Positions 1,913 to 62,167 of a DNA stretch of 64,000 nucleotides are shown piece by piece (the stretch's first letter is position 1; each line of letters begins with the position of its first letter). A model generated the notes under the pieces. It did not search any database. It saw only the letters and a program-made list of their open reading frames with translations, and was not told the DNA's origin. Origin of the DNA: Alphaproteobacteria bacterium (GTDB lineage Bacteria > Pseudomonadota > Alphaproteobacteria > UBA9219 > RFNS01); the NCBI GenBank assembly GCA_009927055.1, contig RFNS01000177.1, positions 29,794 through 93,793 of the forward strand, written 5' to 3'. Made by a program: the position numbers and the translations under genes.

Positions 1913-1927
1913 CGCTCTCCCATCGTC

Positions 1928-2020
1928 ATCCTCGCGCAGGCGGGGATCCACTTACCCACCCACACTTCTTGCAGAGGCGTGAAGACTCCCTATCGCCGGA
2001 ATGACGCTGTTTTGTTGTTG
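1928..2020. repeat. Copy of composite intergenic palindromic element (left hairpin CGTCATCCtcgcgcaggcGGGGATcca ... right end GCCGGAATGAC)
   Basis: Shares both end motifs with element at 11098..11215; hairpin ATCCTCGC/GCGGGGAT. Confidence 0.4.
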
Positions 2021-9192: not shown

Positions 9193-9219
9193 ATTTGGTG
9201 ATCCCGGTCGGGTTTGAAC
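9193..9219. repeat. 27-bp direct repeat duplicating the 3' end of tRNA-Lys (second copy 9304..9330) - att-site-like footprint
   Basis: ATTTGGTGATCCCGGTCGGGTTTGAAC occurs at 9193..9219 and 9304..9330; the second copy is the tRNA-Lys 3' 24 nt plus 3 nt. Confidence 0.6.
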
Positions 9220-9265
9220 TGAATGGCTTGGTTGGCGAGTGTACGAGCCTACCAAACATTCATCC

Positions 9266-9290
9266 CCGCGAAGGCGGGGACCTGCGGCAA
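9266..9290. repeat. GC hairpin CCCCGCGAAGGCGGGG (member of CCYCGCGAAGGCGGGG palindrome family; also at 42912..42935)
   Basis: Perfect 6-bp stem with GAAG loop; near-identical motif TACCCTCGCGAAGGCGGGGGC at 42912..42935. Confidence 0.45.
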
Positions 9291-9306
9291 GACGCATGCC
9301 CAAATT

Positions 9307-9381
<75 letters not shown>

Positions 9382-11055: not shown

Positions 11056-11097
11056 GTTCAGTCCTTACTGATCAACAGCCACGCCGCACATACCATC

Positions 11098-11215
11098 GTC
11101 ATCCCGACGAAAGTCGGGATTCATGGATCAATCTGTACGCATAAAAAGCGGCAGATATGCCGATATATCTGTCCATGGATTCCGGCTTCCGCCGGAATGA
11201 CATTTTGTGTCAATC
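11098..11215. repeat. Composite palindromic intergenic element (hairpin ATCCCGACgaaaGTCGGGAT ... TCCATGGATTCCGGCttcGCCGGAATGACA) in convergent hpnH/ppdK spacer
   Basis: Right-hand unit TCCATGGATTCCGGC-N3-GCCGGAATGACA recurs at 45748..45780, 61981..62011 and inverted at 62137..62167. Confidence 0.5.
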
Positions 11216-11241
11216 TTGTTTTTTGGCGGTGATCATCAAAC

Positions 11242-23859: not shown

Positions 23860-24441
23860 CTATTGCCCCACCAGCACTTCAGACCAGTGCTGCCGCACGT
23901 TCTTCTCAAACTGCTGATCAATATCAGAGATCAGGCCGTTCATCAGGTTATTCCAGGCGGCTTGGCGCTCGGCGGGGGTGGCGTCTTCTGGCAGCGTGGT
24001 TGAGCGTGCCGCCTCTGCACTCACAAAACCGCGCTGGGCCGTTTCCGGCTTCAGCAACTGCATCTCGGCCTTCACTGTGCCTTGCCATTGCTCGCGCTGC
24101 TGGCGGGTGAAGGTGCCCTGAAGATCTTGTCGCAGGGGCAGCGGCTGCCGCACAACCTCGGCCTGCTGAATAACCAGGGTGATTTGCCCATCGGCCCCCG
24201 CGGCCTGAAGGCGCTGCTGCTGCCAGTTGTTCAGCCGTGTTTTAAGATCAGGCATCATGGTGATGGCATGGGCCGACACGCCCACCGCATTATCGGCCGC
24301 AGCAACGTGCGCCACATTTAACCGTAAGGGCGAGAGTTGAGAGAGATCATAGACAGCAGGCACCGCCGCAGGTGTTGTGGCGCACGCCGACAACGCCAGC
24401 AAAAGCACAAAGCCCAGGCCCATCAGCCGCCCGCGCATCAT
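23860..24441 (-). CDS. Hypothetical lipoprotein
   Basis: Signal peptide with lipobox LLLALSAC; start overlaps nuoD stop. Confidence 0.5.
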
Positions 24442-25652
24442 CGATCAATCTCGCCAAAAACAATATCCATGCTGCCGATGATGGCCACCGTATCGGCCAG
24501 CATGCTGCCTTTGCACATAAAATCGGATGCCTGCAGGTGGGCAAAGCCGGGACTGCGGATTTTGCAGCGATATGGTTTATTCGTGCCATCGCTGACCAAA
24601 TAAACGCCAAATTCACCCTTGGGGGCTTCTACGGCCGTATAGGTTTCGCCCGCCGGCACGTGATAACCTTCGGTATAAAGTTTGAAATGGTGGATCAGCG
24701 CTTCCATCGATTTTTTCATCTCGGCGCGGCTGGGCGGGGCGCTTTTCCGGTCATCACTTTTCACCGGCCCATCGATGCCGGGCAGGGCCGACAAGCATTG
24801 CTGCATGATTTTCAGGCTTTGGCGCATTTCTTCAACACGCACCAGATATCGCGCATAACAATCGCCCGTTTTGCCCACAGGCACGTCAAAGTCCATTGTG
24901 TCGTACACATCGTAGGGCTGGCTTTTCCGCAAATCCCACGCCACGCCGCTGGCCCGCAGCATAGGGCCACTGAATCCCCACGCAATCGCATCAGCCGCTT
25001 TCACAATGCCCACATCAATGGTGCGTTGGCGGAAGATGCGGTTATCGGTGAGTAATTCTTCCAGATCGGCCAAAAATTTTGGAAAGCGCGCGCACCACGC
25101 CACCATATCGTCCAGCAATCCTTTGGGCAGATCTTGGTGTACGCCGCCGGGCCTGAAATAATTGGCGTGCATGCGGGCGCCTGAGACGCGCTCGTAAAAC
25201 TCCATCAACTCCTCGCGCTGTTCAAACGCCCACAGCGAGGGGGTGACCGCGCCAACATCAATCGCAAAGGTGGTGACATTCAGCAGGTGATTAAGAATGC
25301 GCGTGACTTCTGAAAACAGCACCCGAATATATTGCGCGCGCAACGGCGGCGTAATTTTCAACAACTTTTCAACCGCCAGCGCAAAGGCATGCTCTTGACA
25401 CATGGGGCTGACATAATCGAGCCGGTCAAAATAAGGGATGGCCTGAAGATAGGTTTTGTGCTCGATCAGCTTTTCAGTGCCGCGATGCAGCAGGCCAATG
25501 TGCGGGTCGGCGCGTTCTACCACTTCGCCATCCATTTCTAAAATCAGGCGCAGCACGCCGTGCGCGGCAGGGTGCTGTGGCCCAAAGTTCATGGTGAAGT
25601 TGCGAATTTTTTTTGTGCTGTCGTCGGCGGGCTTTTCTTGGGGCAGAGTCAT
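24438..25652 (-). CDS. nuoD: NADH-quinone oxidoreductase subunit D
   Basis: [16 protein letters not shown]..., 404 aa, typical 49-kDa subunit. Confidence 0.9.
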
Positions 25653-25729: not shown

Positions 25730-26482
25730 ATGCCCACCCCACCCTTGGTTACCGTTGCTGTGCCCAGTTTTCAGCAAGGCCGTTTTCTGGCCGATGCGCT
25801 TGATTCTATCTTGTCGCAACATGTGTCGGTTGAAATTTTTCTGGCCGATGGCGGATCAACCGACCAGACGCCAGAGATCATCAAAAAATACGCCCCCCAT
25901 CTGGCAGGCTGGCGCAGTGAGCGTGATGGCGGCCAGGCCAATGCCATTAACTGGGCCATGGCCCAGGGCACGGCCCCATTTGTGTGCTGGCTGAACAGCG
26001 ATGATGCCTTTGCTGCCAATGGGTTATCAACATTGCTTGATGCATTACAGAAGAACAGTGATTGGGCCATGGCCTATGGCAAGGTGATGAATACCGATGC
26101 AACCCTGACCCCCACCAGCGCTGTGTGGGTTCAATCGTTCAGCCGCTCAAAAATGGCGCAGCGCTGCATCATCAGCCAACCCGGCACCCTGATGCGGCGC
26201 ACGGCATGGGAAGCCGTGGGCGGCGTGAACGGCGCCCTTCATATGGCGATGGACTATGACTTGTGGTGGAAACTGTCAACGCAGGGGCCTTTGGGCCACG
26301 TGCCACGTCTTGTGGCCTATAACCGGGTCCACCCAGAGACAAAAACAAATTCAAAGCGCGTGCAACATTATGTTGAAGCCATGAAGGTGGTGCGCCAGCA
26401 TTATGGGCATGTGCCCCTCAAATGGTGGCTTTACTGGCCTTATGCGGTATGGTTCAAATCACTCCTTAACCCCCAACGTTGA
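25730..26482 (+). CDS. Family 2 glycosyltransferase (GT-A fold)
   Basis: VTVAVPSFQQGRFL...DGGSTDQT...WLNSDD (DxD) pattern; paralog of 27439..28656. Confidence 0.7.
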   Translation: MPTPPLVTVAVPSFQQGRFLADALDSILSQHVSVEIFLADGGSTDQTPEIIKKYAPHLAGWRSERDGGQANAINWAMAQGTAPFVCWLNSDDAFAANGLSTLLDALQKNSDWAMAYGKVMNTDATLTPTSAVWVQSFSRSKMAQRCIISQPGTLMRRTAWEAVGGVNGALHMAMDYDLWWKLSTQGPLGHVPRLVAYNRVHPETKTNSKRVQHYVEAMKVVRQHYGHVPLKWWLYWPYAVWFKSLLNPQR

Positions 26483-26490
26483 GACACTGC

Positions 26491-27432
26491 ATGGGCGCTG
26501 TCACCTTTTCAATCGATGAAAGACTGCTGGAAATACTTCAAAACAACGGCCGCCTAGATGCGTTTGTGGAAACCGGCACCTTCAAAGGTGATAGCGCGCT
26601 TCTTGCCTCAAAGTATGCCAAAAACGTTTACTCAGTCGAATGGTCAGAAAAGCTCTATGCAGAGGCCTCTGACAAATTGCGTGGTGTGGCGAATATCGCA
26701 TTAACCCAAGGCACATCACCCAACTTCCTGATGACATTAAAAAGCAGGCTTGCTGAACGTCAGATTGTGTATTTTTTAGATGCACATTGGTGCGTTCATG
26801 CCAACACCGCTGGGGAAGAATCGCAATGCCCGCTCTTGGAAGAGTTGAAAAGCATCGGCAGCTTAAAAAGTCGTGATATTGTCATCATCGATGATGCAAG
26901 GCTTTTTTTATGCTCCCCCCCTGCTCCTCATCATGTCACCGATTGGCCAAAACTGCACGACATCATTACAGCCCTTCAGCGCCTGAGCGCCTCTCATCGT
27001 CTCGCCGTCTGCAATGATATGATTTTATTTTATCCGGAGGATATGGAAACGCTCCTGTCAACCTATGCCATCAACCACGGCATTGACTGGCTTCACATCA
27101 TGCACCAAAACCGCGCCATTCAAAATGAGCACATCACCAAAGAGCACTTTTTTGCCGAGCAACGGCGATTGATTCAACTTGCACACGAAAAAGATGCCCT
27201 GATCCACCGGTATGAGGCGATATTCCAATCTTCTGCCAGCCTCAGCGATATTCACCCCGGCTTTATCTCAGAAATCCGCCGGCTTAACCATGAAGTTGCT
27301 TACTATCAGTCGCTCAGCAACGCCTACAAAGTTTATAGCGGCGGCGCCTTCAGTCAGTTGAAGGTGCAAGTGACAGCCGCGCTTGCCCGGTTAGGTCAAC
27401 GCTTGTCTCACCTGATCAGACGCACGTCTTGA
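26491..27432 (+). CDS. Class I SAM-dependent O-methyltransferase-like protein (family-3 OMT-like N-terminal domain) with C-terminal coiled-coil extension; start uncertain (TTG 26479 in track)
   Basis: FVETGTFKGDSALLAS (SAM motif I-like), ...VYFLDAHW..., ...DIVIIDDARLF... resemble the O-methyltransferase family-3 pattern. Confidence 0.45.
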   Translation: MGAVTFSIDERLLEILQNNGRLDAFVETGTFKGDSALLASKYAKNVYSVEWSEKLYAEASDKLRGVANIALTQGTSPNFLMTLKSRLAERQIVYFLDAHWCVHANTAGEESQCPLLEELKSIGSLKSRDIVIIDDARLFLCSPPAPHHVTDWPKLHDIITALQRLSASHRLAVCNDMILFYPEDMETLLSTYAINHGIDWLHIMHQNRAIQNEHITKEHFFAEQRRLIQLAHEKDALIHRYEAIFQSSASLSDIHPGFISEIRRLNHEVAYYQSLSNAYKVYSGGAFSQLKVQVTAALARLGQRLSHLIRRTS

Positions 27433-27438
27433 AAAGTC

Positions 27439-28656
27439 GTGACTGGACAAGTGACTGTTAAGCAGCCTATATCCTTTTCAGGAAAAAAACTTAAGCAAAA
27501 CACCCATCTTGGTGCAAAAAATATGACCAAACCTCAACTCCTTTCATCATCCGAACACACGACATCTCCAATCCAGGAGGATGAGGTTTTGAGCACAAAT
27601 GTTTTGTCGCGACTCCAAGAAGTGACAAAACATCTTGAAAAAATTGATACCCAATTGACCAAAAATAACAAGCACCTTGAGAATATAGAAGGTTTGATAT
27701 GCTCGAAAATGAATTCGTCGGCTGCCAACAAAACTTCTTCACTTGTAAAGCGCCTTTTCTGGCCGCGCTTGGGCAACTTGAACCAATCGCCGCCTTGCCA
27801 ACTTCTGCTTGATGACAGCTATTTCAAAACTTCGCCCCCCCCGAAGGCGCCAAAAATTTCTCTTGTCACGCCATCGTTTCGGCAAGGCGCCTTTATCGAA
27901 CGAACAATCCTCAGCATCCTTCATCAGGATTATCCCAATCTTGAATATATTGTTCAGGATGGTGGATCGACCGATGATACCGTTGCGCATCTAAAAAAAT
28001 ATGAACATCGCCTGACATCGTGGGTGAGCGAAAAAGATGGCGGACAAACCAACGCCATTAATCGCGGCTTTGCCAAAACGGACGGCGAGATTATGGGCTG
28101 GCTCAACTCCGATGATCTGCTGCTGCCAGGCAGCCTGAACACGGTTGCCAACTTTTTTGCCCAAAACCCGCATGTGGACGTGGTCTATGGCCACCGCATC
28201 CTGATTAATGAGCATGACCATCAGATTGGGCGCTGGATCATGCCCAACCACAATCACGATGTTTTATCGTGGGCCGATTTTATTCCACAAGAAACCATGT
28301 TCTGGCGGCGCAGCCTGTGGGAAAAAGTGGGCGCCAGCCTGGATGAAAACTTTAAGTTCGCCATGGATTGGGATTTGATCCTGCGTTTTCGGAAAGCGGG
28401 CGCAAAGTTTGTGCGAATCCCCCGTTTTCTTGGCGCCTTTCGCATCCATTCTGCCCAAAAAACCTCGGCTGTTATTTCTGATATCGGCTTTAAGGAAATG
28501 GATATTCTACGCAAACGGGAAATTGGCTACGTTCCAGGTTATCCGGAAATACGCAAAAATCTGCTGATCTATATCTTGGAACATATTGCGCTGGATTACT
28601 CTTACCGCCTGTCGAGAAATTTCAAACCGCGCAAACCTTTTATGGTGATGGCCTAG
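27439..28656 (+). CDS. Family 2 glycosyltransferase with about 140-aa low-complexity/coiled-coil N-terminal extension (GTG start in track; alternative ATG about 27523)
   Basis: C-terminal 260 aa parallel 25730..26482 (VTPSFRQGAFIERTILSILHQ...DGGSTDDT...WLNSDD); N-terminal region low-GC. Confidence 0.65.
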   Translation: MTGQVTVKQPISFSGKKLKQNTHLGAKNMTKPQLLSSSEHTTSPIQEDEVLSTNVLSRLQEVTKHLEKIDTQLTKNNKHLENIEGLICSKMNSSAANKTSSLVKRLFWPRLGNLNQSPPCQLLLDDSYFKTSPPPKAPKISLVTPSFRQGAFIERTILSILHQDYPNLEYIVQDGGSTDDTVAHLKKYEHRLTSWVSEKDGGQTNAINRGFAKTDGEIMGWLNSDDLLLPGSLNTVANFFAQNPHVDVVYGHRILINEHDHQIGRWIMPNHNHDVLSWADFIPQETMFWRRSLWEKVGASLDENFKFAMDWDLILRFRKAGAKFVRIPRFLGAFRIHSAQKTSAVISDIGFKEMDILRKREIGYVPGYPEIRKNLLIYILEHIALDYSYRLSRNFKPRKPFMVMA

Positions 28657-28660
28657 ATTC

Positions 28661-31519
28661 ATGCTGGCTCTCGCACTCAGTTTTTTGTTGCTTATTTATT
28701 TCTCGATGGTCGGTTTTAGCGCGCTTGGTTTCACGCAATTAAGACAACGATTGATGATTAAACTGCTGCTGGCCCCTGCGGTGGGAATTGGGTTGGTGAT
28801 GGTCCCCATCAACCTGCTTCATTTTTTTAATTTACCTATCAGCACCATCTGCTGGCCTGTTTTTATGGCCACAATTTTTATCGCTATCTTGCTTCTGTTA
28901 AGGCAAAAACCTATTATCCACACGCATCACGTCATACGCGTGGGGCTCATTGCCCTCGCCGCCTTGCTGGTGGTGGGGTGGCCCATGTTGCTGTTCGGGC
29001 TTGACTGGCTTAGCTACACCAACGATGACATGGCCAATTATGTTCTGGGGGCGCAGCGTTGTCTGCTGCACGGCCTTCAAGACAGGCCACCTGCCACTGC
29101 ATTCTCAGAGCACACCGACTACACCGCCTTTTTCTGGTTCATGCATTGGTTTGGCGGGCACCGCGTGGGATCGGAGCAGATGATCGCCTATTTCTGGGGA
29201 TTAACCGGGCTAAACGGGCACCAGCTGTTTGTACCGATGATGAACTGCTTTCACATGGCGTTGGTCATGGCGGCCGGCGGGCTTGTGTCGGCCAATTTTT
29301 CGGGCTCACGGCAGGCTTATGTCACTCTTATTCTCATGGCTTTATCACCCCTCACAGGATTGGGCACCCTCTTTCAGCTGATCGCGCAACTGATGGGTTT
29401 ACCCGTTTTATGCGCTCTGCTGGCTCTCTCACACCGACTGGCACGGCCGACATCCTCGCACTTGGTCGGCCATATCTTGATCACCGCCTTGTTGTTCGGG
29501 GGTCTTTGCATCATTTACCCCGAAACCCTACCGTTTTATGTTCTCAGTGTCATTGTTTTTCTGCTGGCCATGACATGGCGCCGCGGGCGCACTCAAAACA
29601 CCTTACGCCTGCTCATCATTGGTAGCATCATTGCCTTGGGGAGCCTGCTGTTACTGAACGTCACTTTGGCGAACATTGTGCATTTCATGATCACGCAGGC
29701 ACAGTCGGGATCGAGCGCCCATGTGGTGCGTGGGCTGATCTTACCTTATTTCATGCTACCCACAGGGTTGCCCACTTTTTGGGGGATTTTGCCACTCACC
29801 GCCCATCTTCCCCTGCCCGACATCCTGAAAGATGTCGTGATGAATGGAATGATTCTTGTGGCCATAGCTCTTTTTGGTATCTTGCTCTGGCAACTGTTCA
29901 AACAAATAAAAAAACAAACCGTCTGCGCCATCACATCTCTTGTGATGCTTCTGCTGGGGGGTTATCTGTTCTACCAAGTTAGTGATTTTGGTCTTTTCAA
30001 GCTGTCGATGTTTATCCAGCCTTTTGTGCTGGGTGTCATGGCGATCTGGCTTTGTGAAAAGAAAAAACTTTTTTCTCCTCGCCGACAAAAAATCGTTCTG
30101 TTGCTGCTGTTGGTTCCAACCTTGGTGACTTATGGCGGCTATACGCTACGCAGCACGGGCACGATCAGCGGCAGTGCCAATGATGTGCCGCTTGCTAGCC
30201 TTAAAAAGGTCAACCAGCAATTTGCACAAACCATGGAAGAGGCCAAAGAAAAAGGCCTGAATCTTTTATGGTCAGATGCATCATGTACTGTGCTGGCTAA
30301 GTTTCAATCATTATACGCGCTGGGTGAATCTTTCCTCCTCCCCTCGCGGGATTTTCTGGGGAAACTTTTGGATCAAGCCACAGGCAAGCCTTCACCCCTC
30401 ATGAGTGAGGAAGATATTCGTGCAGGCCATGAGCTCGATCAGATTCACATCCATCAACGTCGCGTCCATCTGATGGATAATCATTCTGTTGTTAACCGGT
30501 TCAAGGTTGTCAACAACCTGGGCGATGAATTATCGCGGCGCGCCTTAATCACAACCAACCAATCACAAAGCTTTTATAATGCTTATTATGCCAACCATGA
30601 TGACGCCCCTTACTTTAGAATAGATACAAAACCGCGCAATCATCTTGTGTTTGTTTTTTCTGATTTCGGCAACCACTATTACCTGCATGATGTTAAAAAA
30701 ATTTCGTATTTTGAGTTAGAGCGAGACCCGATGTTTCCCGGCCGCCAGTTTGCAAGCATGGGGCAGTATCTTGTATTCTTTATGGTTGGCGCGCCCCAGC
30801 AACCCCGCGTTTTAATGGAACTGACCAGCACCATTCTTAAACACAAAGGCAGCCAGTTGCCCCAGCCCGTCATCTCAGGAACAGAGGAAACGGTGATGCC
30901 GTTTGTGGGGCGCGGCTCTGGCCGCATGGTCAGCGCGCCTGTGCAAGGCAAAATGATTGAAGGCGCGCCCTTTCTGGCCTTCGATATGCAATCGCCCCCC
31001 GAGCGCATGCCCATTCACCGCACAGGCCTGATGAACCTGTATCACCCTGAAATACCGCTTGATCTGCGTAACATCAGCGTGTTTGGACGCGATGTATCGA
31101 TTATCGACGACGAGGATTATGGCGCGTGGCAACGACCATCGTGGCTTGAAAAATTTCCGGCCGATCTGTCGCACAAACATCTGGAATATTCGGGCATTTA
31201 TGAGGATGGATGGCTGTCTGAACACAGTTTGTTTGTTTTATCACGCCCCGATAAAAATTCAGTCCTGCACATTCAAGGATTGATCCCTTTGGTAAAAAAT
31301 AGCCAATTCAGCACAACTCTGACTGTAAAAATAAATGGGAAGAATATGTTGGAACAACAATTAGCTTTGGGCGAGTTTCACTTCCGCATCCCGTCCGATC
31401 AGTTGCCCGAAAGCACAAGCTACCGCATTGAACTCATTTTCTCTGCCGCCCAGAAGCTGCCAGGCGATGATGCCCGCGTGGCCGTGGGCCAGCTGCACGC
31501 CATCGGGTTCAGGCCCTGA
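28661..31519 (+). CDS. Large polytopic membrane protein, putative GT-C-fold glycosyltransferase (YfhO/ArnT-like architecture: 12-15 TM N-terminal half plus about 450-aa extracytoplasmic C-terminal domain)
   Basis: 952 aa; many TM helices to about residue 480; conserved acidic pair in first extracytoplasmic loop (WLSYTNDDMANY); immediately followed by GtrB-like and GtrA-like genes. Confidence 0.45.
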   Translation: MLALALSFLLLIYFSMVGFSALGFTQLRQRLMIKLLLAPAVGIGLVMVPINLLHFFNLPISTICWPVFMATIFIAILLLLRQKPIIHTHHVIRVGLIALAALLVVGWPMLLFGLDWLSYTNDDMANYVLGAQRCLLHGLQDRPPATAFSEHTDYTAFFWFMHWFGGHRVGSEQMIAYFWGLTGLNGHQLFVPMMNCFHMALVMAAGGLVSANFSGSRQAYVTLILMALSPLTGLGTLFQLIAQLMGLPVLCALLALSHRLARPTSSHLVGHILITALLFGGLCIIYPETLPFYVLSVIVFLLAMTWRRGRTQNTLRLLIIGSIIALGSLLLLNVTLANIVHFMITQAQSGSSAHVVRGLILPYFMLPTGLPTFWGILPLTAHLPLPDILKDVVMNGMILVAIALFGILLWQLFKQIKKQTVCAITSLVMLLLGGYLFYQVSDFGLFKLSMFIQPFVLGVMAIWLCEKKKLFSPRRQKIVLLLLLVPTLVTYGGYTLRSTGTISGSANDVPLASLKKVNQQFAQTMEEAKEKGLNLLWSDASCTVLAKFQSLYALGESFLLPSRDFLGKLLDQATGKPSPLMSEEDIRAGHELDQIHIHQRRVHLMDNHSVVNRFKVVNNLGDELSRRALITTNQSQSFYNAYYANHDDAPYFRIDTKPRNHLVFVFSDFGNHYYLHDVKKISYFELERDPMFPGRQFASMGQYLVFFMVGAPQQPRVLMELTSTILKHKGSQLPQPVISGTEETVMPFVGRGSGRMVSAPVQGKMIEGAPFLAFDMQSPPERMPIHRTGLMNLYHPEIPLDLRNISVFGRDVSIIDDEDYGAWQRPSWLEKFPADLSHKHLEYSGIYEDGWLSEHSLFVLSRPDKNSVLHIQGLIPLVKNSQFSTTLTVKINGKNMLEQQLALGEFHFRIPSDQLPESTSYRIELIFSAAQKLPGDDARVAVGQLHAIGFRP

Positions 31520-31558
31520 TCACTTGCCATGATGCGTGGCTTTATTTATCGATAAGAG

Positions 31559-32509
31559 ATGACTCGCGAAGCCCCCAACCCCCTGCTGTCGGTTGTTGTT
31601 CCTGTCTATAAGGAGGAAAACAGCATTAAGCCTTTTCTGGCGCGCATAGAGCCTGTGTGCCAAAAAATTGCCGGCGATTCTTATGAAATTATCTTTTCAC
31701 TCGATCCATCGCCCGACAAAACCGAAGATGTGATTATGGCCGAAATTCAGCGCAACCCCCATATTCGGCTGCTTGTTTTCTCGCGGAGGTTTGGGCAACC
31801 GGCCGCCACCATGGCGGGCATTTTGTCATCGCAAGGGCAACACTGCGTGGCGATTGATGTTGACCTGCAAGACCCGCCCGAATTGATTGAAACCATGTTC
31901 CAAAAACTGGGCGAGGGGTTTGAAGTGGTTTATGCCCAGCGCCGCACGCGCGAGGGCGAAACGTGGGTGAAAAAAACCATTGCTGAATTCGGTTATGCGG
32001 TCATCAATAAACTGAGTGATGTTAAAATCCCCCGCAACACGGGCGATTTTCGCATCATGACACGCCGCGTGGTGGAAGAACTGCGCCGCCTGAACGAAAC
32101 GCACGGCTTTTTGCGCGGGCTGGTGGCGTTTGTGGGCTTTAAGCAGGCCGCAGTGTTATACGATCGCGATGCACGCTTTGCTGATGTGGGCAAATATAAT
32201 CGCCTGACAGGTTCTTTCAAAATTGGCCTGAACGGTCTGGTTGGGTTCAGCAGTCGGCCCCTTCAGTTTATGTCGCTGATTGGTTTTTGCTTCGCCATGA
32301 TTGGCTTTTTGCTGGGGGCCTGGTACGTTTTCCAAAAAATTGTGGGTATTGAACTCACCCCCGGTCTTTCAACCACTGTGCTGGTTGTCACGTTCTTTTC
32401 TGGCGTACAGCTGCTGGCGCTGGGGCTGATGGGCGAATATGTGGGCCGCATTTATGACGAAGTGAAACGCCGCCCCGCCTATATTGTCGATCGCAAGGTC
32501 AATTTTTAA
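31559..32509 (+). CDS. Polyprenyl-phosphate glycosyltransferase (GtrB/CsbB/ArnC/DPM1-like GT2 with C-terminal TM pair)
   Basis: LSVVVPVYKEE...DDGS-like region, DVDLQDPPE (DxD), C-terminal two TM helices; 316 aa. Confidence 0.75.
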   Translation: MTREAPNPLLSVVVPVYKEENSIKPFLARIEPVCQKIAGDSYEIIFSLDPSPDKTEDVIMAEIQRNPHIRLLVFSRRFGQPAATMAGILSSQGQHCVAIDVDLQDPPELIETMFQKLGEGFEVVYAQRRTREGETWVKKTIAEFGYAVINKLSDVKIPRNTGDFRIMTRRVVEELRRLNETHGFLRGLVAFVGFKQAAVLYDRDARFADVGKYNRLTGSFKIGLNGLVGFSSRPLQFMSLIGFCFAMIGFLLGAWYVFQKIVGIELTPGLSTTVLVVTFFSGVQLLALGLMGEYVGRIYDEVKRRPAYIVDRKVNF

Positions 32510-32916
32510 TGATGGCGCTTATCAGGGAAAATCTGCGCCGGCCGGCGGTGCGATATATCTTGGTGGGCGTCACCAACACAACTTTCGCATGGCTGCTCAT
32601 GAACCTCACGCTGGGCCCGCTGGCCATGAGCCCGGCCGCCGGCATGGCCATCGTTTTTGCTTTAACGGCCATTTTTCATTTTATCGCCAATCGGCAGTTC
32701 ACCTTTCAAAGCAAGGGCAAGTGGCAGCATGATGTGCTGCGGTATCTTATCCTTTTGGGTGTCAATTACTTATCAACAACCGCCCTCACCCAATGGTTGA
32801 CCGATTTGTCGCTGCCGCTATTAATCATCACAACAGCCGCAACGGTGTGGAGCGCGCTGCTGGGCTTTGCGGGGGGCAAATTTTTTGTTTTTCGCAACGC
32901 ATCGTCATCTCTTTGA
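32509..32916 (+). CDS. GtrA-family small membrane protein (polyprenyl-P-sugar flippase-like)
   Basis: 135 aa, 4 TM, RYILVGVTNTTFAWLL... typical GtrA fold; start overlaps upstream stop (TAATG). Confidence 0.7.
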   Translation: MMALIRENLRRPAVRYILVGVTNTTFAWLLMNLTLGPLAMSPAAGMAIVFALTAIFHFIANRQFTFQSKGKWQHDVLRYLILLGVNYLSTTALTQWLTDLSLPLLIITTAATVWSALLGFAGGKFFVFRNASSSL

Positions 32917-32925
32917 GCGAAAAAC

Positions 32926-33888
32926 ATGACACAAAAAAAATATTTGGTCACCGGCGCCGCGGGCTTTATTGGCAGCACGCTGGTCGATCGTCTGCTGCGT
33001 GATGGTCACACCGTGGTGGGGATTGATAATTTTTCAACAGGACAGCGCCGCTTTCTTGAAAAGGCGCAACCCACCCCCCGCTTCACACTGATCGAGATTG
33101 ACCTGCTGCACGGCAATATTGTGCCGCATTTTGCGGGGGTTGATGGCGTGTTTCATCTGGCCGCCAATGCCGATGTGCGCTTTGGCACCGATGCCCCGCG
33201 CCGCGATTTAGAGCAAAACACCATCGTTACCCACAACGTGCTGGAAGCGATGCGACAAAACGGCGTGACACAGATTGGTTTTTCATCCACCGGCTCGGTT
33301 TATGGTGAGGCCAGGCAAATCCCCACGCCAGAGGATGGCCCCTTCCCCATCCAAACATCGCTTTATGGCGCCTCAAAACTGGCGGGCGAAGGGCTGATTG
33401 CGGCCTATGCCGAAGGTTTTGGTTTTAAGGCGTGCATTTTCCGTTTCGTCTCGGTGCTGGGGCCGCGTTACACGCACGGCCACGTGTTTGATTTTGTCCA
33501 GCAGTTGAAAAAAGACCCCGCCAACCTGCGCGTGCTGGGCAATGGCAAGCAACGCAAATCGTACATGCATGTCGATGACTGTGTCGATGCCATTTTGCTG
33601 GCGACCGAAAAATCGACCGAGAAGGTGGGCGTGTTTAATCTGGGCTGCCCCGAATATTGTGAAGTGAACGACAGCATTGGGTGGATCACCGCCCGCATGG
33701 GCCTGAATCCGCAGCTGAATTATACGGGCGGCGAACGTGGGTGGATTGGCGATAATCCGTTCATCTTCCTTGATGTACAAAAAATTCTGGCCCTAGGCTG
33801 GAATCCCAAATACACTATTCGCCAAGGCGTTGAAGCGACAGTTGATTTTCTGACGAACAATCTTTGGGTTTATGAGGCGCGATCATGA
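32926..33888 (+). CDS. NAD-dependent epimerase/dehydratase (extended SDR, UDP-sugar 4-epimerase/decarboxylase-like)
   Basis: VTGAAGFIGSTLVDRLL Rossmann motif, YxxxK present (YGASKLAGE). Confidence 0.75.
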   Translation: MTQKKYLVTGAAGFIGSTLVDRLLRDGHTVVGIDNFSTGQRRFLEKAQPTPRFTLIEIDLLHGNIVPHFAGVDGVFHLAANADVRFGTDAPRRDLEQNTIVTHNVLEAMRQNGVTQIGFSSTGSVYGEARQIPTPEDGPFPIQTSLYGASKLAGEGLIAAYAEGFGFKACIFRFVSVLGPRYTHGHVFDFVQQLKKDPANLRVLGNGKQRKSYMHVDDCVDAILLATEKSTEKVGVFNLGCPEYCEVNDSIGWITARMGLNPQLNYTGGERGWIGDNPFIFLDVQKILALGWNPKYTIRQGVEATVDFLTNNLWVYEARS

Positions 33889-34006
33889 AGGGTGTTGATC
33901 ATGCCTTAGGCCAACAAACACCTCATCACGCGGCCTGTTTGCCCAACGATGATGGCACGCTGCGCTGCATTGTGCCGGCCGATCGCGGCAAAAAATGGGG
34001 GAACTG

Positions 34007-34993
34007 ATGCGCGTAGGCATTGTGGGCTGTGGGTTGATTGGCCAAAAACGCGCCAAGGCGCTGGCGGGCGCGCATCTCACCATGTGCGCCGATGTGGTGA
34101 TGGATCGCGCCGCCGCACTGGCCAAAACCGCCAAGGCCGAGGCGACCGATGACTGGCAAAAACTGGTGACAAGCCCCCATGTTGATGTGGTTGTGGTGGC
34201 CACGCGGCATGATGTGCTGGCCCCCATAACCCGCGCCGCCATCGACAACGGCAAGCACGTTCTGGTTGAAAAACCGGCCGCACGACACACCACCGAACTG
34301 GCGGGCCTGGCCGATGCGGCCAAGCAAAAAAAGGTTTGCGTGCGCGTGGGGTTTAATCATCGCTATCATCGCGCTTTCCAAAAAGCACGGCAGATTGTGG
34401 ACAGCGGCGCGCTGGGCGAGATGATGTTTATTCGCGCGCGCTATGGCCACGGCGGGCGCGTGGGATACGATAAAGAATGGCGGGCTGATCCCGCGCTCTC
34501 TGGTGGGGGCGAGCTGATTGACCAAGGCGTGCACCTGATTGATCTGGCTGGGTGGTTTCTGGGAAATTTCCCCCACGTTGATGGTTTTGCGCACACATAT
34601 TTTTGGCAAATGCCGGTTGATGATAACGGCTTTATGATTTTGCGGACAGAAAAAAACCAGGTGGCCTTCTTGCATGCCAGCTGCACCGAATGGAAAAACA
34701 CTTTTTCGTTCGAAATGTATGGCCGCACCGGCAAACTTCATATCGAAGGTTTGGGCGGCAGCTATGGCGTTGAGCGTCTGACGCACTATGCCATGCAGCC
34801 CGAAATGGGCCCGCCGCCCACCGAAGCGTGGGAGTATCCGATGGCCGATAACTCGTGGGATGTTGAAATGGCCGAATTTCTGGCCGATATTCAGCAGGGG
34901 CGCACACCGGCCGCCGGCCTTGCAGAGGCCGAGGCCGCCCTGACAGTTGTTCAAAAAATCTACGAAAGGTCTGGATATGATCATCGCCCGTAG
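34007..34993 (+). CDS. Gfo/Idh/MocA family NAD(P)-dependent sugar oxidoreductase
   Basis: MRVGIVGCGLIGQKRAKAL..., EKP motif (VLVEKPAA). Confidence 0.75.
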   Translation: MRVGIVGCGLIGQKRAKALAGAHLTMCADVVMDRAAALAKTAKAEATDDWQKLVTSPHVDVVVVATRHDVLAPITRAAIDNGKHVLVEKPAARHTTELAGLADAAKQKKVCVRVGFNHRYHRAFQKARQIVDSGALGEMMFIRARYGHGGRVGYDKEWRADPALSGGGELIDQGVHLIDLAGWFLGNFPHVDGFAHTYFWQMPVDDNGFMILRTEKNQVAFLHASCTEWKNTFSFEMYGRTGKLHIEGLGGSYGVERLTHYAMQPEMGPPPTEAWEYPMADNSWDVEMAEFLADIQQGRTPAAGLAEAEAALTVVQKIYERSGYDHRP

Positions 34994-35957
34994 TCCCCTT
35001 CGCGTCACCCTTGGCGGCGGCGGCACCGATTTGCCTTCGTATTATCGCGAACACGAAGGATTTTTGATCGCCGCGGCGATTGATAAATATGTTTATGTCA
35101 CCGTCATGCGGCCATTTACGCCCGGAATTTTTTTGAAATACTCGCAACTTGAAAATGTGCCGCAGCCCGATGACGTGAAGCACCCCATTGTGCGCGAAGC
35201 CCTGCACATCATGAAAGAGCCCGTGCCGCAGGTTGAAATTACCACGCTGGCCGATATTCCTTCGGGTACGGGGCTTGGCTCATCGGGCAGTTTTACAACA
35301 GCCCTGATGAAGGCCCTGTATATGCATCACAAAAAACTTATTTTGCCGGCCGAGCTGGCCGAACTGGCATGCCACATTGAGATTGACCGATTGAAGGAGC
35401 CGGTGGGCAAGCAAGATCAATACATCGCGGCCTATGGCGGCATTACCTGCTTTACCTTCTGCCGCGATGATAAAGTGCAGGCGCGCCCCCTCAACATCAA
35501 TTCAGAAACGATGTTTGATCTGGAAGATAATTTGCTGCTGTTCTTCACCGGTTTTTCGCGCAGCGCCGGCAGCATTTTGAAAGACCAGAACACCAAAACG
35601 CAGCAAAATAATAACGATATGATTGCCAACCTGAATTATGTGAAAGACCTTGGCCTGCGCAGTCAAAAGGCGCTGGAAGCCGGCAACGCGCGCGAATTTG
35701 GCGCCCTGATGCACGAACATTGGGAGCACAAGAAAAAACGCAGCGGCGGCATGAGCAACCCCAAAATTGACGAATGGTATGAACTGGGCATGACAAGCGG
35801 CGCGGTGGGTGGCAAGCTGGTGGGCGCGGGCGGCGGTGGCTTCCTTATGTTCTATGCCGAGGATAGAAACAAACTGAAACATGCGATGGTGAAAGCGGGG
35901 CTGGAAGAAGTCCGTTTTCGGTTTGATTTTGAAGGCACAAAAATTGTGTTGAACTGA
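34977..35957 (+). CDS. GHMP kinase, D-glycero-alpha-D-manno-heptose 7-phosphate kinase (HddA-like)
   Basis: ARSPLRVTLGGGGTDLPSYY..., GHMP motif PSGTGLGSSGSFTTAL; positioned with gmhA/gmhB/nucleotidyltransferase. Confidence 0.65.
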   Translation: MIIARSPLRVTLGGGGTDLPSYYREHEGFLIAAAIDKYVYVTVMRPFTPGIFLKYSQLENVPQPDDVKHPIVREALHIMKEPVPQVEITTLADIPSGTGLGSSGSFTTALMKALYMHHKKLILPAELAELACHIEIDRLKEPVGKQDQYIAAYGGITCFTFCRDDKVQARPLNINSETMFDLEDNLLLFFTGFSRSAGSILKDQNTKTQQNNNDMIANLNYVKDLGLRSQKALEAGNAREFGALMHEHWEHKKKRSGGMSNPKIDEWYELGMTSGAVGGKLVGAGGGGFLMFYAEDRNKLKHAMVKAGLEEVRFRFDFEGTKIVLN

Positions 35958-36661
35958 TGATCCCCGTTGCCATTTTGGCGGGTGGGCTGGCCACGCGCCT
36001 TCGCCCCATCACCACAACCATCCCCAAGGCTTTGGCCGAAGTAGCGGGCCACCCCTTTATTCATTGGCAGCTGCAAGATCTTGCGGTGCAGGGCGCGCAC
36101 GATGTGGTGATGCTGGTGGGCTATTTGGGCGAGCAGATTGAAAAAGAAATTGGCAACGGCCACCAATACGGCCTGAACATTCGCTATGTTTTTGATGGGC
36201 CAACACTGCTGGGCACCGGCGGCGCGTTGCGTCAGGCCCTGCCGCTGCTGGGCGATGCGTTTTTTGTGCTGTATGGCGATTCCTTTTTGCAGGTCAATTA
36301 TCAGGCGGTGGAGGCGGCCTTTATCAAAAGCGGCCAGCGCGCCCTGATGACCGTGTTAAAAAACGGCAACCAATGGGACAAAAGCAATGCAACCTTCAGC
36401 GGCGGCCAACTGATTGAATATAATAAGAAAAGCCCCACACCCGCCATGACCTATATCGATTATGGCCTCAGCATTTTAACCCGCCAGGCCCTTGAAGACT
36501 GGCACGAAAACGGTGTGTTTGATCTGGCCAGTTTGTTTCACTATCTTTCGGTGAGCGGACAATTGGCGGGTTTTGAGGTGTTTGAGCGTTTCTATGAAAT
36601 CGGCACCCCGCAATCACTCGCCGAAGCCAACGCATACTTTTCATCAAAGAGGAAACCATGA
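35957..36661 (+). CDS. Sugar-1-phosphate nucleotidyltransferase (HddC-like D-glycero-alpha-D-manno-heptose 1-phosphate guanylyltransferase)
   Basis: AILAGGLATRLRPITTTIPKAL... NTP_transferase signature, 234 aa. Confidence 0.65.
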   Translation: MIPVAILAGGLATRLRPITTTIPKALAEVAGHPFIHWQLQDLAVQGAHDVVMLVGYLGEQIEKEIGNGHQYGLNIRYVFDGPTLLGTGGALRQALPLLGDAFFVLYGDSFLQVNYQAVEAAFIKSGQRALMTVLKNGNQWDKSNATFSGGQLIEYNKKSPTPAMTYIDYGLSILTRQALEDWHENGVFDLASLFHYLSVSGQLAGFEVFERFYEIGTPQSLAEANAYFSSKRKP

Positions 36662-37287
36662 CCTACGCCGCGCAACACATTCAAGAATCCATTCAGATTT
36701 TACAAAAAATTGATGCCGCCGCGATTGAACGCATGGCCGATGAGCTGGCCGCACTCCGCGCGCGCGGTGGACGACTGATTTTTCTGGGCGTGGGCGGCAG
36801 TGCGGGCAACTGCGGTCATGCCGTCAATGATTTTAGAAAAATTGTGGGCATCGAAAGTTATGCCCCCACCGATAATGTTTCAGAACTCACCGCGCGCACC
36901 AACGATGAAGGCTGGGCCAGCATTTTTATCGAGTGGTTGAAGGTTAGCAAACTGAACAACAATGATGCGGTTTTTGTTTTCTCGGTTGGCGGCGGCAATA
37001 TTGAAAAAAACATCAGCCCCAATTTGGTCACGGCCCTTCAACACGCCAAAAGTGTGGGTGCAAAAATTTTGGGCGTGGTGGGGCGCGATGGCGGCTATAC
37101 CGCCCAGGTGGCCGATGCCTGCGTGATTGTGCCCACCGTGAACAATGATAACGTCACACCCCACAGCGAGGCGTTTCAGGCCGTGGTGTGGCATTTGCTG
37201 GTGTCGCATCCCAAACTGAAAGCCAACCAAACAAAATGGGAAAGCGCCACAGGTTCGCCCGCGGTTTCTACAGCCAAAGTGGCCTAA
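36658..37287 (+). CDS. gmhA: Sedoheptulose-7-phosphate isomerase (SIS domain, GmhA)
   Basis: SIS domain GVGGSAGNCGHAVNDF..., ...FSVGGGN... Confidence 0.75.
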   Translation: MTYAAQHIQESIQILQKIDAAAIERMADELAALRARGGRLIFLGVGGSAGNCGHAVNDFRKIVGIESYAPTDNVSELTARTNDEGWASIFIEWLKVSKLNNNDAVFVFSVGGGNIEKNISPNLVTALQHAKSVGAKILGVVGRDGGYTAQVADACVIVPTVNNDNVTPHSEAFQAVVWHLLVSHPKLKANQTKWESATGSPAVSTAKVA

Positions 37288-37290
37288 GCG

Positions 37291-37824: not shown

Positions 37825-37831
37825 GGGCCCC

Positions 37832-39627: not shown

Positions 39628-39629
39628 CC

Positions 39630-42058: not shown

Positions 42059-42061
42059 GGC

Positions 42062-42385: not shown

Positions 42386-42391
42386 GGTGGC

Positions 42392-45747: not shown

Positions 45748-45780
45748 TGTCCATGGATTCCGGCTTCCGCCGGAATGACA
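45748..45780. repeat. Palindromic repeat unit TCCATGGATTCCGGCttcCGCCGGAATGACA in convergent pgk/HAD spacer
   Basis: Same unit as 11184..11215 and 61981..62011. Confidence 0.5.
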
Positions 45781-45820
45781 TGATTTTTTCTCAGCTACCC
45801 ATCTTCATGATGGATTCAGC

Positions 45821-61669: not shown

Positions 61670-61695
61670 GAAAAAATTTTCAATTGGCCGCATCT

Positions 61696-61968
61696 ATGGC
61701 TTATGTTGTGTACATTCTTGCCAGTCAGAAACGCGGAACACTCTACGTGGGTGTGACCAATAATCTGTCACAACGGCTTGAACAGCATCGCCATGGCCGT
61801 ATAAGCAGTTTTACAAAACGATATAAAGTTTTTCGGCTTGTGTATGCCGAAGAATATGCCGTGGTGACAGAGGCCATTCAACGCGAAAAAACAATTAAAG
61901 AGTGGCGGCGACAATGGAAGATTGAATTGATCGAGAGCATCAACCCCGACTGGAAAGAACTGTCTTGA
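61696..61968 (+). CDS. GIY-YIG nuclease family protein (YhbQ-like)
   Basis: YVVYILASQKRGTLYVGVTNNLSQRLEQH... GIY...YVG motif. Confidence 0.7.
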   Translation: MAYVVYILASQKRGTLYVGVTNNLSQRLEQHRHGRISSFTKRYKVFRLVYAEEYAVVTEAIQREKTIKEWRRQWKIELIESINPDWKELS

Positions 61969-61980
61969 TGGCCATTTCAG

Positions 61981-62167
61981 TCCATGGATTCCGGCGTGCG
62001 CCGGAATGACACAATGATAACGATTGGTTTTGTTCTGACCATATTATTTTTGTTCTGACCATCTTGGTTGAGGATCATTTTTTCAAGCAGAACAATGCAT
62101 CATCATAACAAACCATCACAACAAAAAATGTCATTCCGGCGCACGCCGGAATCCATGGAGCGCTTGC
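61981..62167. mobile_element. MITE-like element: 31-bp terminal inverted repeats TCCATGGATTCCGGCGTGCGCCGGAATGACA flanking about 125-bp AT-rich core with internal direct repeat TTTGTTCTGACCAT x2
   Basis: 61981..62011 and its reverse complement at 62137..62167 read directly; core contains two copies of tttgttctgaccat. Confidence 0.5.

Follow-up and report, generated by a model that had tools for sequence, protein, structure and literature searches.

A dispersed family of intergenic hairpins, probably Ssn-related motifs, with a predicted cognate GIY-YIG nuclease in an uncultured freshwater alphaproteobacterium

Short palindromic sequences recur in the intergenic spacers of a 64,000-nucleotide stretch of alphaproteobacterial DNA (termed here the window), which raises the question of what kind of element they are. 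A preliminary description, made from the letters alone, viewed them as two hairpin types within a REP-like family, and suggested that they may serve as bidirectional terminators or mRNA stabilizers or, alternatively, may be the ends of a mobile MITE. Here these possibilities are weighed against others, including one that involves a small gene lying beside two of the repeats.

Ssn-related motifs (SRMs) form hairpins in ssDNA and serve as binding sites for small GIY-YIG nucleases (Ssn), which were described in 2025 and are the first site-specific nucleases that cut only ssDNA (Chenal et al. 2025, Nat Commun, PMC11893778). Ssn cleaves the strand that carries the motif, a few nucleotides to its 5' side, and is inactive on dsDNA, on RNA and on the complementary strand; the N. 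meningitidis enzyme (Nm SsnA) binds the ssDNA form, not RNA, and loses activity when the palindrome sequence is altered; and the cytosine after the palindrome is binding-critical (PMC11893778). The NTS/SRM motif extends the Neisseria dRS3 element; its canonical layout is NTS-ssnA-NTS, and in Neisseria Ssn controls transformation (PMC11893778). The dRS3 element is a 20-bp repeat, ATTCCC-N8-GGGAAT, and NIME are arrays of such units separated by 50-150-bp RS-element families (Bentley et al. 2007, PMC1797815). Every such pair of nuclease and motif is a potential ssDNA tool.

One family of oriented hairpin units

The two hairpin types of the preliminary description are a single oriented unit read on opposite strands: the supposed second type (1924-1951, 9258-9285 and 11097-11127) is the first on the other strand, and a repeat search of the window groups 1920-1950, 9254-9284, 11093-11123 and 62125-62155 into one family (D1). 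The unit is about 30 nt long and consists of (C/T)GTCAT, an 8-bp stem starting with ATYCC, a 4-nt loop, and GGRAT-CCATGG; the inner 3 bp of the stem vary with compensation, and the loop is mostly GNRA-like. Over five spacers there are six good copies, plus a degenerate one and the remaining half of a decayed one. They are listed here with the neighboring gene, where 'SRM pattern' denotes the published search sequence, HGTCWYN(0-2)YYVSBRHN(0-5)WNVSBRGN(0-2)RNCYNB (Chenal et al. 2025):

1924..1951, plus strand: SRM unit CGTCATCCTCGCGCAGGCGGGGATCCAC; stem ATCCTCGC/GCGGGGAT including one G-T pair, loop GCAG; 8-bp hairpin; exact SRM pattern; in a tandem spacer, just past the stop of an EAL-domain gene
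1978..2006, minus strand: decayed reverse unit, of which only the 3' half remains, CGCCGGAATGAC(G) at 1994-2006; 12-mer match
9258..9285, plus strand: degenerate SRM-like unit ATTCATCCCCGCGAAGGCGGGGACCTGC; 7-bp hairpin; one substitution from the SRM pattern; flanked on each side by a copy of the tRNA-Lys 3' end, in the DUF1465/tRNA-Lys convergent spacer
11097..11127, plus strand: SRM unit CGTCATCCCGACGAAAGTCGGGATTCATGGA; stem ATCCCGAC/GTCGGGAT, loop GAAA; T after the palindrome; left half of a forward/reverse doublet in the HpnH/PPDK convergent spacer
11172..11203, minus strand: SRM unit ATGTCATTCCGGCGGAAGCCGGAATCCATGGA; right half of the same doublet; one substitution from the SRM pattern
45750..45781, minus strand: solitary SRM unit in the PGK/HAD convergent spacer; 34 nt identical to 11170-11203
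61696..61968, plus strand: ssn gene; its 90-aa product is a single-domain GIY-YIG nuclease and the predicted partner of the repeats (Pfam, homology, AlphaFold)
61981..62011, minus strand: SRM unit TGTCATTCCGGCGCACGCCGGAATCCATGGA; exact SRM pattern; begins 13 nt past the ssn stop
62012..62128, no strand: AT-rich 117-nt segment enclosed by two inverted units; contains TTGTTCTGACCAT twice
62129..62159, plus strand: SRM unit TGTCATTCCGGCGCACGCCGGAATCCATGGA; exact SRM pattern; downstream of a PfkB-family kinase gene

That the repeats are real and above chance is borne out by counts against shuffled sequence, all of which refer to the 64-kb window (about 72 kb of the host genome was covered in all). 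With at most one mismatch, TCATYCC-N10-GGRAT has 8 matches, as opposed to 1.09 +/- 1.03 in shuffles, none of 100 of which reach 8; CGCCGGAATGAC has 5, as opposed to 0.58; and the SRM pattern has three exact matches (1924+, 61984- and 62129+), as opposed to 0.21 +/- 0.45 in 100 shuffles. Units 9258, 11172 and 45750 are each one substitution away from the SRM pattern, and unit 11097 requires more than one. No orthologous empty sites were obtained, since the closest relatives of HpnH, from JGI metagenomes, have 62-73% protein identity, which is too distant for spacer comparison; such HpnH-related loci from other organisms were therefore used as a negative control, and within their 796 kb the hairpin motif has no match. 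Among all Rfam families at gathering thresholds, two tRNAs alone matched in the window.

The first of the two proposed types, TCCATGGATTCCGGC-N4-GCCGGAATGACA, indeed occurs at 45750-45780 and 61981-62011, but its two other sites are shifted, to 11172-11202 (from 11184-11215) and, for the inverted copy, to 62129-62159 (from 62137-62167). A hairpin at 42912-42930, which had been counted as a member, exists but has neither conserved flank and does not fit the family pattern even when one substitution is allowed; hence it is not a member. Another candidate small repeat, TGTGCCTGCGGA at 42831 and 45694, does not significantly exceed chance, inasmuch as its two matches are reached in 11 of 100 shuffles.

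Conservation extends beyond the palindrome. The upstream flank GTCAT is present in six of seven units, and a C directly follows the palindrome in units 1924, 11172, 45750, 61981 and 62129, with a T in 11097. The flanks of unit 9258 are mutated (TTCAT for GTCAT, and GGGGAC for GGGGAT, in which C replaces the last palindrome base, T). Four stems occur in the window, namely ATTCCGGC, ATCCCGAC, ATCCTCGC and ATCCCCGC; the first predominates, occurring in four units, and that of unit 11097 is also found in other genomes.

The units form stable hairpins, as had been proposed: RNA and DNA folds agree on an 8-bp stem closed by a 4-nt loop, except that the stem of the degenerate unit 9258 has 7 bp, and DNA-parameter folds range from -6.3 to -11.4 kcal/mol with z-scores of -2.2 to -4.4. 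Nor is the motif unique to the window, since members of the family are found across many phyla. Among 121 different units, drawn from this window and from many phyla, pairing holds in 98% of stem cells, and double-sided changes occur in 85 stem cells versus 23 in shuffles; none of 500 shuffles reaches 85. The stems of the units differ from one another by compensatory changes.

The neighboring GIY-YIG gene and the identity of the repeats

The gene that ends 13 nt before unit 61981-62011, which was overlooked in the preliminary description, encodes a 90-aa protein with a GIY-YIG domain (PF01541; 63.4 bits over residues 7-80 of the 94-aa ORF). It contains Y6, Y17 and E64, the positions mutated in Nm SsnA; these, together with R27, H31 and N83, are invariant in alignments of 28 and of 40 homologues. 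The AlphaFold model has a pLDDT of 93.4, and its best PDB matches are GIY-YIG structures (1zg2, 1ywl, Slx1 and the UvrC N-terminal domain). A gene flanked by unit arrays in a Neisseria sp. MAG (locus L073) encodes a homologue with 52% identity over 86 aa (E = 4e-33), and homology to Neisseria was measured through it, the published criterion being E < 1e-10 to N. meningitidis SsnA. NCBI MAGs include annotations of a 90-aa protein with exactly this sequence, and PADLOC defence-system models gave no meaningful match for the nuclease.

Because of this adjacent gene, the repeats are identified as Ssn-related motifs (PMC11893778); that is, very probably they are a generalized form of the Neisseria NTS/dRS3 whose predicted cognate Ssn is encoded within the window. 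The unit consensus matches the published NTS (CGTCATTCCCGCGMAVGCGGGAATCYRG), with which it shares an oriented unit with (C/T)GTCAT, a palindrome beginning with ATYCC, a C-rich 3' flank, a 4-nt-loop hairpin, multiple intergenic copies and an adjoining gene for a single-domain GIY-YIG protein of about 90 aa with predicted catalytic residues Y6, Y17 and E64. Hence the window supplies a further instance of an established kind of system, an SRM/Ssn pair, in an uncultured freshwater alphaproteobacterium. It departs from the described system in several respects besides its host: the dominant stem is ATTCCGGC rather than ATTCCCGC; neither of the ssn-linked SRMs lies upstream of the gene, both being downstream as a reverse/forward pair, the second (62129) 117 nt after the first; several stem classes occur alongside the single ssn gene seen; and an A-rich run occupies the expected cleavage region of the ATTCCGGC units.

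Linkage between ssn and such units is also seen elsewhere, at the homologue loci L073, L048, L222 and L224. Of three loci examined from among the closest homologues, two have SRM-like hairpins adjoining ssn; the third (L221) has a single hairpin about 3.9 kb from the gene. One of the two, L224, has the same layout as the window (ssn, reverse unit, about 100 nt, forward unit) in a different gene context.

By analogy with the characterized enzymes, a unit would fold into a hairpin once the DNA becomes single-stranded; Ssn would then bind the hairpin together with its flanks and cleave that strand a few nucleotides to the 5' side of the motif. Units 1924, 11097/11172 and 45750 and the degenerate unit 9258 are dispersed members of the family to which the two beside ssn belong. 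We infer by the same analogy that the Ssn of the window cuts these units. Resemblance to the two ssn-adjacent units is, however, limited to the four units with the ATTCCGGC stem; the stems ATCCCGAC, ATCCTCGC and ATCCCCGC may not be substrates of this Ssn, given that Nm SsnA loses activity upon changes to its palindrome. For the host, the system could serve in the control of incoming or transient ssDNA and of recombination, as in Neisseria transformation, or it could persist as a semi-selfish gene-plus-site module; both roles are inferred. The window thus offers a compact pair (a predicted 90-aa enzyme and a ATTCCGGC-stem site 13 nt away), the natural variants of which (i.e., other stems, or T for the critical C) are useful for testing how specificity is encoded.

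The relationship to dRS3 raises the further question of whether the units instead have the role that dRS3 has for Nf prophages. Neisserial filamentous phages integrate at dRS3, which forms the core of this motif family, and the units resemble dRS3 in palindromic core design (ATTCC...GGAAT) and intergenic location; such a role is therefore conceivable. It is nonetheless very improbable here: no recombinase or prophage gene of this kind is present among the called genes of the window, and the strict ATTCCC-N8-GGGAAT is absent from all units. The arrangement also differs from NIME, since the window contains solitary units and two-unit groups with unrelated interiors rather than long RS-separated arrays. 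(A role as a phage site would add to the link with Ssn and not exclude it.)

The view of the repeats as a REP-like family of palindromic intergenic sequences enriched in convergent spacers holds descriptively: like REPs, BIMEs and REPINs, they are short extragenic palindromes that prefer the 3' ends of genes, often form inverted doublets of non-identical units (compare the Y and Z REPs of BIMEs), and are linked to a dedicated enzyme that recognizes ssDNA hairpins. It is a different matter to suppose that a RAYT, an IS200/IS605-like Y1 enzyme, has spread them in the way that REP/REPIN elements are spread in E. coli and Pseudomonas. The foot of a REP palindrome reportedly carries a conserved GTAG/GTGG tetranucleotide, whereas the conserved 5' flank here is YGTCAT; no Y1-transposase Pfam family occurs among the called genes of the window; the doublet interiors are not conserved; and the gene linked to the units, both here and in relatives, encodes a GIY-YIG nuclease rather than an HUH Y1 transposase. 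Mobilization by a RAYT is accordingly a most improbable account of these repeats.

Spacer placement and transcription termination

SRMs occur in 4 of 11 convergent junctions versus 1 of 58 other junctions (Fisher p = 0.0017), the four being the HpnH/PPDK, PGK/HAD and ssn/PfkB spacers and, for the degenerate copy, the DUF1465/tRNA-Lys spacer; thus the convergent-spacer location noted earlier is upheld. Copies probably persist mainly in such spacers because insertions there spare promoters.

This placement, which applies to four of the five loci, is also what might suggest that the hairpins are mainly bidirectional intrinsic terminators or 3'-end mRNA stabilizers selected as RNA, their repetition being due to convergent selection or to terminator copying. 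As in Rho-independent terminators, the stem is GC-rich and 8 bp long, and in two units it is followed by a T-run when read in the sense of the upstream gene: in unit 11172 the hairpin is followed by GACATTTTGT on the plus strand, and in unit 62129 by GACATTTTTT on the minus strand. Two sites, at 11179-11198 (+) and 62152-62133 (-), pass a stem-plus-T-run scan, and in each ATTCCGGC unit ...GGAATGACA gives way to a T-rich stretch when read in the sense of the upstream gene. By this simple scan the proposed terminator role fits two of the seven units, but the other five fail it, most units lack a T-run, and no A/T run is seen beside the unit across 203 family members from other genomes. Moreover, PGK already has a terminator-like hairpin (45695-45714) upstream of its SRM; the conserved non-palindromic flanks, GTCAT and CCATGG, play no part in termination, and sequence conservation across phyla likewise sets the units apart from terminators; Nm SsnA binds ssDNA, not RNA; and the adjacent nuclease gene would be left unexplained. 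Termination as the main function is therefore unlikely. On the preferred reading of the repeats as SRMs, some copies may double as transcription terminators, this being at most a local, secondary role.

Doublets, relatives and a possible inversion

The loci at 1928-2020 and 11098-11215 share the order described earlier, a forward unit followed by a reverse unit, except that in the first the reverse unit is half decayed. Alignment of 1978..2006 with the composite at 11088-11220 indicates that the left arm has been lost; judging from this alignment, unit 1924 and the decayed unit are a former forward/reverse doublet. In the intact doublet, the starts of the two units (11097 and 11172) are 80 nt apart. 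This fits the commonest paired form, inasmuch as forward/reverse doublets spaced 43-90 nt account for 46 of 76 adjacent pairs.

It is this arrangement that led to the proposal of MITE ends, under which the composites at 1924-2006 and 11097-11203 would be MITEs and the units the terminal inverted repeats of a non-autonomous transposon. The inverted ends do share the same outer sequence (CCATCGTCATCC...CGCCGGAATGAC), and the composite folds, at -52 kcal/mol, into one long hairpin. Between the two composites, however, the interiors have no similarity, and those of 43 doublets from other genomes likewise differ, the exceptions being two tandem copies in L015 and a near-identical pair (L062/L106). 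Furthermore, the arms of the 11097/11172 doublet differ in stem, each being compensated within its own unit, which implies that selection maintains the single hairpin rather than pairing between the arms. Since, in addition, no target-site duplication is visible, a solitary unit exists (45750) and no transposase gene is present in the window, the MITE proposal is very unlikely and is not retained.

Reading the repeats as SRMs leaves one further feature to be considered, namely the pair beside ssn: 61981-62011 and 62129-62159 form a perfect 31-nt inverted repeat (I3) around the 117-nt segment, whose internal repeat TTGTTCTGACCAT is found nowhere in the window except as this local tandem pair in the ssn spacer. 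In one contig from a freshwater metagenome (L211) the segment 62012..62128 is reversed, and the Ssn cuts expected for the inverted pair fall on opposite strands, just inside the segment. That the units bound a segment that can flip is nevertheless unlikely. A look-up from the PfkB side gave no second case of the inverted segment because the contigs end at the unit. If flipping were true, the Ssn/SRM module would itself be, or would help to drive, a small switch based on DNA inversion, and SRM pairs would have a role in recombination or rearrangement beyond the control of Neisseria transformation, which might also be how units spread.

Every strain of 99-100% identity from other samples has these units too, with no presence/absence polymorphism among them. 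Assembly contigs end at the units (Logan contig L003 at 11199; L215 and L216 at 45777; L219 and L220 at 62133), which is due to the copies within the window (the 34-nt and 31-nt identities) and thus provides no independent evidence for more copies. Such breaks in short-read assemblies, the bias toward convergent 3' spacers and the prevalence across phyla of BIME-like forward/reverse doublets of non-identical units are descriptive points that may be added to what is known of SRMs. On a practical note, recognizing the units avoids spurious calls of small ORFs ('WIPA.AGMT'-type peptides) and false N-terminal extensions of ssn.

The repeat unit and its family

Judged from their sequence, the repeats in the window are Ssn-related motifs (SRMs) accompanied by a predicted cognate ssn gene, that is, they represent a system known since 2025. 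In Neisseria the motif is the 28-nt NTS (CGTCATTCCCGCGMAVGCGGGAATCYRG), which contains dRS3; the SRM is the generalised NTS, with the search pattern HGTCWYN(0-2)YYVSBRHN(0-5)WNVSBRGN(0-2)RNCYNB, and a ~94-aa single-domain GIY-YIG gene (ssnA, CDD cd10448) is spatially linked to such motifs across phyla (Chenal et al. 2025, PMC11893778). Binding by SsnA is limited to the forward strand of the motif in single-stranded DNA, with the cut falling a few nucleotides 5' of it; cleavage depends on three bases upstream of the palindrome and binding on the C directly 3' of it, activity is abolished when the palindrome is altered with the hairpin kept, and catalysis is lost in Y6A, Y17A and E64A mutants (PMC11893778). 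In N. meningitidis the system reduces transformation by NTS-containing DNA ~5-fold, and its NTS-ssnA-NTS layout has been likened to an insertion sequence or a REP/RAYT arrangement (PMC11893778).

Site inspection and a hairpin scan define the unit as (C/T)GTCAT, an 8-bp stem, a 4-nt loop, a complementary arm ending in GGRAT, and then CCATGG(A), where the stem opens with the AT of the 5' flank (ATYCC plus three variable bases). The copies in the window and the associated gene are as follows.

Repeat units and ssn gene in the window
1924-1951, forward, unit
1994-2005, reverse, decayed half copy (CGCCGGAATGAC)
9258-9285, forward, degenerate unit
11097-11127, forward, unit
11172-11203, reverse, unit
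45750-45781, reverse, unit
61696-61968, plus strand, ssn gene (90 aa; Pfam GIY-YIG, 63.4 bits)
61981-62011, reverse, unit
62129-62159, forward, unit

The preliminary description had distinguished two hairpin types, which turn out to be the reverse ('type 1') and forward ('type 2') orientations of one unit; repeat grouping likewise places the copies at 1920, 9254, 11093 and 62125 in a single family (D1). The repeats that it reported are present, some of them 8-12 nt away from where it had placed them. Four window copies carry the stem ATTCCGGC/GCCGGAAT; the other stems are ATCCCGAC/GTCGGGAT, ATCCTCGC/GCGGGGAT and ATCCCCGC/GCGGGGA(C), their differences being compensated, and each unit forms the expected stem-loop in both RNA and DNA folds. 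One further hairpin that had been assigned to the family, at 42912-42930 (CCCTCGCGAAGGCGGGGG, GC-rich), lacks both the GTCAT and the GGRAT-CC flanks and fails the SRM pattern; it sits downstream of a Wzy_C/O-antigen-ligase-like gene and is probably an ordinary 3' hairpin.

The family identity of the units was established in this analysis. The window contains three exact matches to the SRM pattern (1924+, 61984- and 62129+) versus 0.21 in 100 shuffles; units 9258, 11172 and 45750 match with one substitution, which in the latter two is the first loop base, and unit 11097 departs by more than one. Unit 11097 has T where the published binding-critical C follows the palindrome. These stably folding repeats exceed chance: TCATYCC-N10-GGRAT with at most one mismatch occurs eight times in the window (seven of these being true hairpins) versus 1.09 +/- 1.03 in dinucleotide shuffles, none of 100 of which reached eight, and CGCCGGAATGAC has five matches versus 0.58 expected. 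The identical hairpin scan found none in 796 kb of HpnH-relative loci from other organisms.

The linked ssn gene

The units are physically linked to an Ssn-type gene, the only one in the window, which was overlooked in the preliminary description and whose stop codon lies 13 nt before the start of unit 61981-62011. NCBI holds an identical 90-aa protein, annotated as a GIY-YIG nuclease family protein. Its catalytic residues are intact: Y6, Y17 and E64 fall at exact SsnA numbering and, together with R27, H31 and N83, are invariant among 40 homologues. The AlphaFold model (pLDDT 93.4) best matches the GIY-YIG structures 1zg2, 1ywl, Slx1 and the UvrC N-terminal domain. Homologues of ~93-100 aa number more than 4,400; one in a Neisseria sp. 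MAG (52% identity, E = 4e-33) is flanked by arrays of four units on one side and three on the other. Among the nearest homologue loci fetched (~66% identity), L224 shares with the window the order ssn, reverse unit, ~100 nt, forward unit, in an unrelated gene context (the suf cluster), and also has a unit directly upstream of ssn; in L222 there are two ssn genes with hairpins on both sides of each; and L221 has a single SRM-like hairpin ~3.9 kb from its ssn gene. In both L224 and L222 the stems vary between loci. In some homologue gene calls (proteins P0003, P0017, P0060 and P0038) the protein is extended at its N or C terminus, for example by MAGLDPAIHA or VTWTPRSSHGVT; such extensions seem to be SRM units next to the gene that were translated with it, an annotation artefact that recurs.

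If the properties of SsnA carry over (PMC11893778), the window protein would bind its motif only as single-stranded DNA, in a strand-specific manner, and cut a few nucleotides 5' of it. It would recognise the ATTCCGGC units, whose stem is that of the two units adjoining ssn; units with any other stem, and 11097 with its T for the critical C, may be relics or substrates of paralogues elsewhere. The role could be control of single-stranded intermediates or of recombination, or else semi-selfish persistence. This further member of the known system brings a new host and small points of description: units biased to convergent spacers, doublets as a general form, and stem classes that coexist.

The 117-nt segment between the ssn-linked inverted units is flipped in one assembly: the 578-nt contig L211 (ENA ERZ937303) runs along window 61518-62011 and then continues with 62128-62045 in reverse complement. 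Seven other assemblies keep the window orientation. This could be a real, and possibly new, inversion; no less probable is an artefact of small-k assembly at the perfect inverted repeat of 31 nt. This AT-rich segment contains a tandem pair of TTGTTCTGACCAT at a 20-nt spacing (62030-62042 and 62050-62062), overlapped by a weak sigma-70-like site on the minus strand (62041 to 62014); the only other match to TTGTTCTGACCAT in the window, at 26640-26652, has two mismatches.

Stem covariation and doublets across genomes

The motif is not confined to the window: GTCATYCC-N10-GGRATYCATGG, scanned against one genome per GTDB species, matched at least 118 stretches in many phyla (the pattern pre-set the flanks, and the matches listed are no census of the family). 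Hosts among the matches listed include Sphingomonadaceae, Lysobacteraceae, Beta-, Zeta- and Deltaproteobacteria and Neisseria; Nitrospirae, Omnitrophica, Chloroflexi and Gemmatimonadota; and, from the candidate phyla radiation, Daviesbacteria, Saccharibacteria and Magasanikiibacteriota. Among these matches loops are mostly GAAA, GAAG, GCAG, GCAA or GGAA, and the most frequent stem, ATTCCCGC/GCGGGAAT, includes the Neisseria dRS3 repeat.

The stem is constrained to form a hairpin. Although the pattern left three stem pairs free, 122 of the 135 matches listed have a perfect 8-bp stem. In an alignment of 121 distinct units (the window's seven and others from the matches listed), 98% of stem cells are paired, four of the eight pairs show compensatory changes, and double-sided changes number 85 versus 23 in shuffles (85 being attained in 0 of 500); shifting the partner by one column leaves only 37-54% paired.

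Among the 118 loci listed from other genomes, a forward/reverse order with facing CCATGG ends is seen in 46 of 76 pairs of adjacent units, and start-to-start distances in such pairs cluster at 43-90 nt. The 11097/11172 pair (80 nt) is thus a typical doublet, and 1924/1994 a decayed one. RNAfold also gives a long arm-to-arm hairpin (-52 kcal/mol); however, stems within a doublet are often unlike, each self-compensated (as with ATCCCGAC and ATTCCGGC in 11097/11172), which indicates that the selected structure is the single 8-bp hairpin. This, together with doublet interiors that are unrelated from locus to locus, argues against a MITE or a REPIN-like replicating doublet. The proposal that the repeats are MITE ends is hence not supported, target duplication being absent as well as a conserved interior; nor is a RAYT-REP identity, the units lacking a GTAG/GTGG foot and the window having yielded no Y1 transposase. 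E. coli BIMEs, which SRM doublets recall, are likewise built from unlike REPs. Use of the units as recombinase or phage attachment sites, as for dRS3, would be compatible with the Ssn link, but no recombinase or phage gene was found in the window.

Genomic setting of the units

The units are enriched at convergent 3' ends, as the preliminary description had proposed. Called genes and tRNAs define 11 convergent, 46 tandem and 12 divergent junctions in the window, and units occupy four convergent ones (DUF1465/tRNA-Lys, HpnH/PPDK, PGK/HAD and ssn/PfkB), one tandem (EAL/TauE) and no divergent one (Fisher's exact p = 0.0017). Being harmless in convergent spacers may be what lets copies persist in them. 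That they act as terminators or mRNA stabilisers, as had also been suggested, is plausible as a local side role but not as their identity: a stem-plus-T-run scan, read in the sense of the gene upstream, picks out two units, and a T-rich run follows GGAATGACA in all ATTCCGGC units, but the scan leaves out five units, PGK already has a terminator-like hairpin of its own before its unit, and no T-rich run adjoins 203 units from other genomes among the matches listed. Cumulative GC skew drops steadily over the window, implying no replication switch, and the units, four forward and three reverse, thus show no strand bias.

The tRNA-Lys(CTT) gene (minus strand, 9307-9381) has a second copy of its last 30 nt; the two copies, at 9193-9222 and 9304-9333, are 97% identical, 111 nt apart with only 81 nt between, and enclose the degenerate SRM-like hairpin 9258-9285. 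The pattern resembles an att-site scar left by an insertion that an integrase made and that has since been almost entirely deleted.

The window belongs to a 97.7-kb metagenome scaffold (ENA ERZ28577356), and the same organism (99-100% identity) occurs in several freshwater metagenomes and in MAGs GCA_010027225.1 and GCA_010031005.1, both labelled Alphaproteobacteria bacterium by NCBI. Its Logan short-read contigs (L003, L215, L216, L205, L209, L219 and L220) stop exactly at SRM stem edges (window 11199, 45777, 62009 and 62133), because identical copies of 31-34 nt exist inside the window; SRM copies are thus a practical source of MAG fragmentation.

Toxin-antitoxin genes flank leuA (a ParD-family antitoxin, and a BrnT toxin with a CopG-family antitoxin; 54693-54932 and 56744-57197), and a gene for SSB is found at 57335-57802; neither has an evident tie to the repeats. 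Finally, nuoA, nuoB and nuoC are split from nuoD (all minus strand; 24438-25652 and 40935-42760) by a ~15-kb plus-strand cluster (25730-40601) of glycosyltransferase, sugar-nucleotide and GtrA genes, with GC down to 0.49-0.51 at 26-32 kb, which may be an inserted polysaccharide island.
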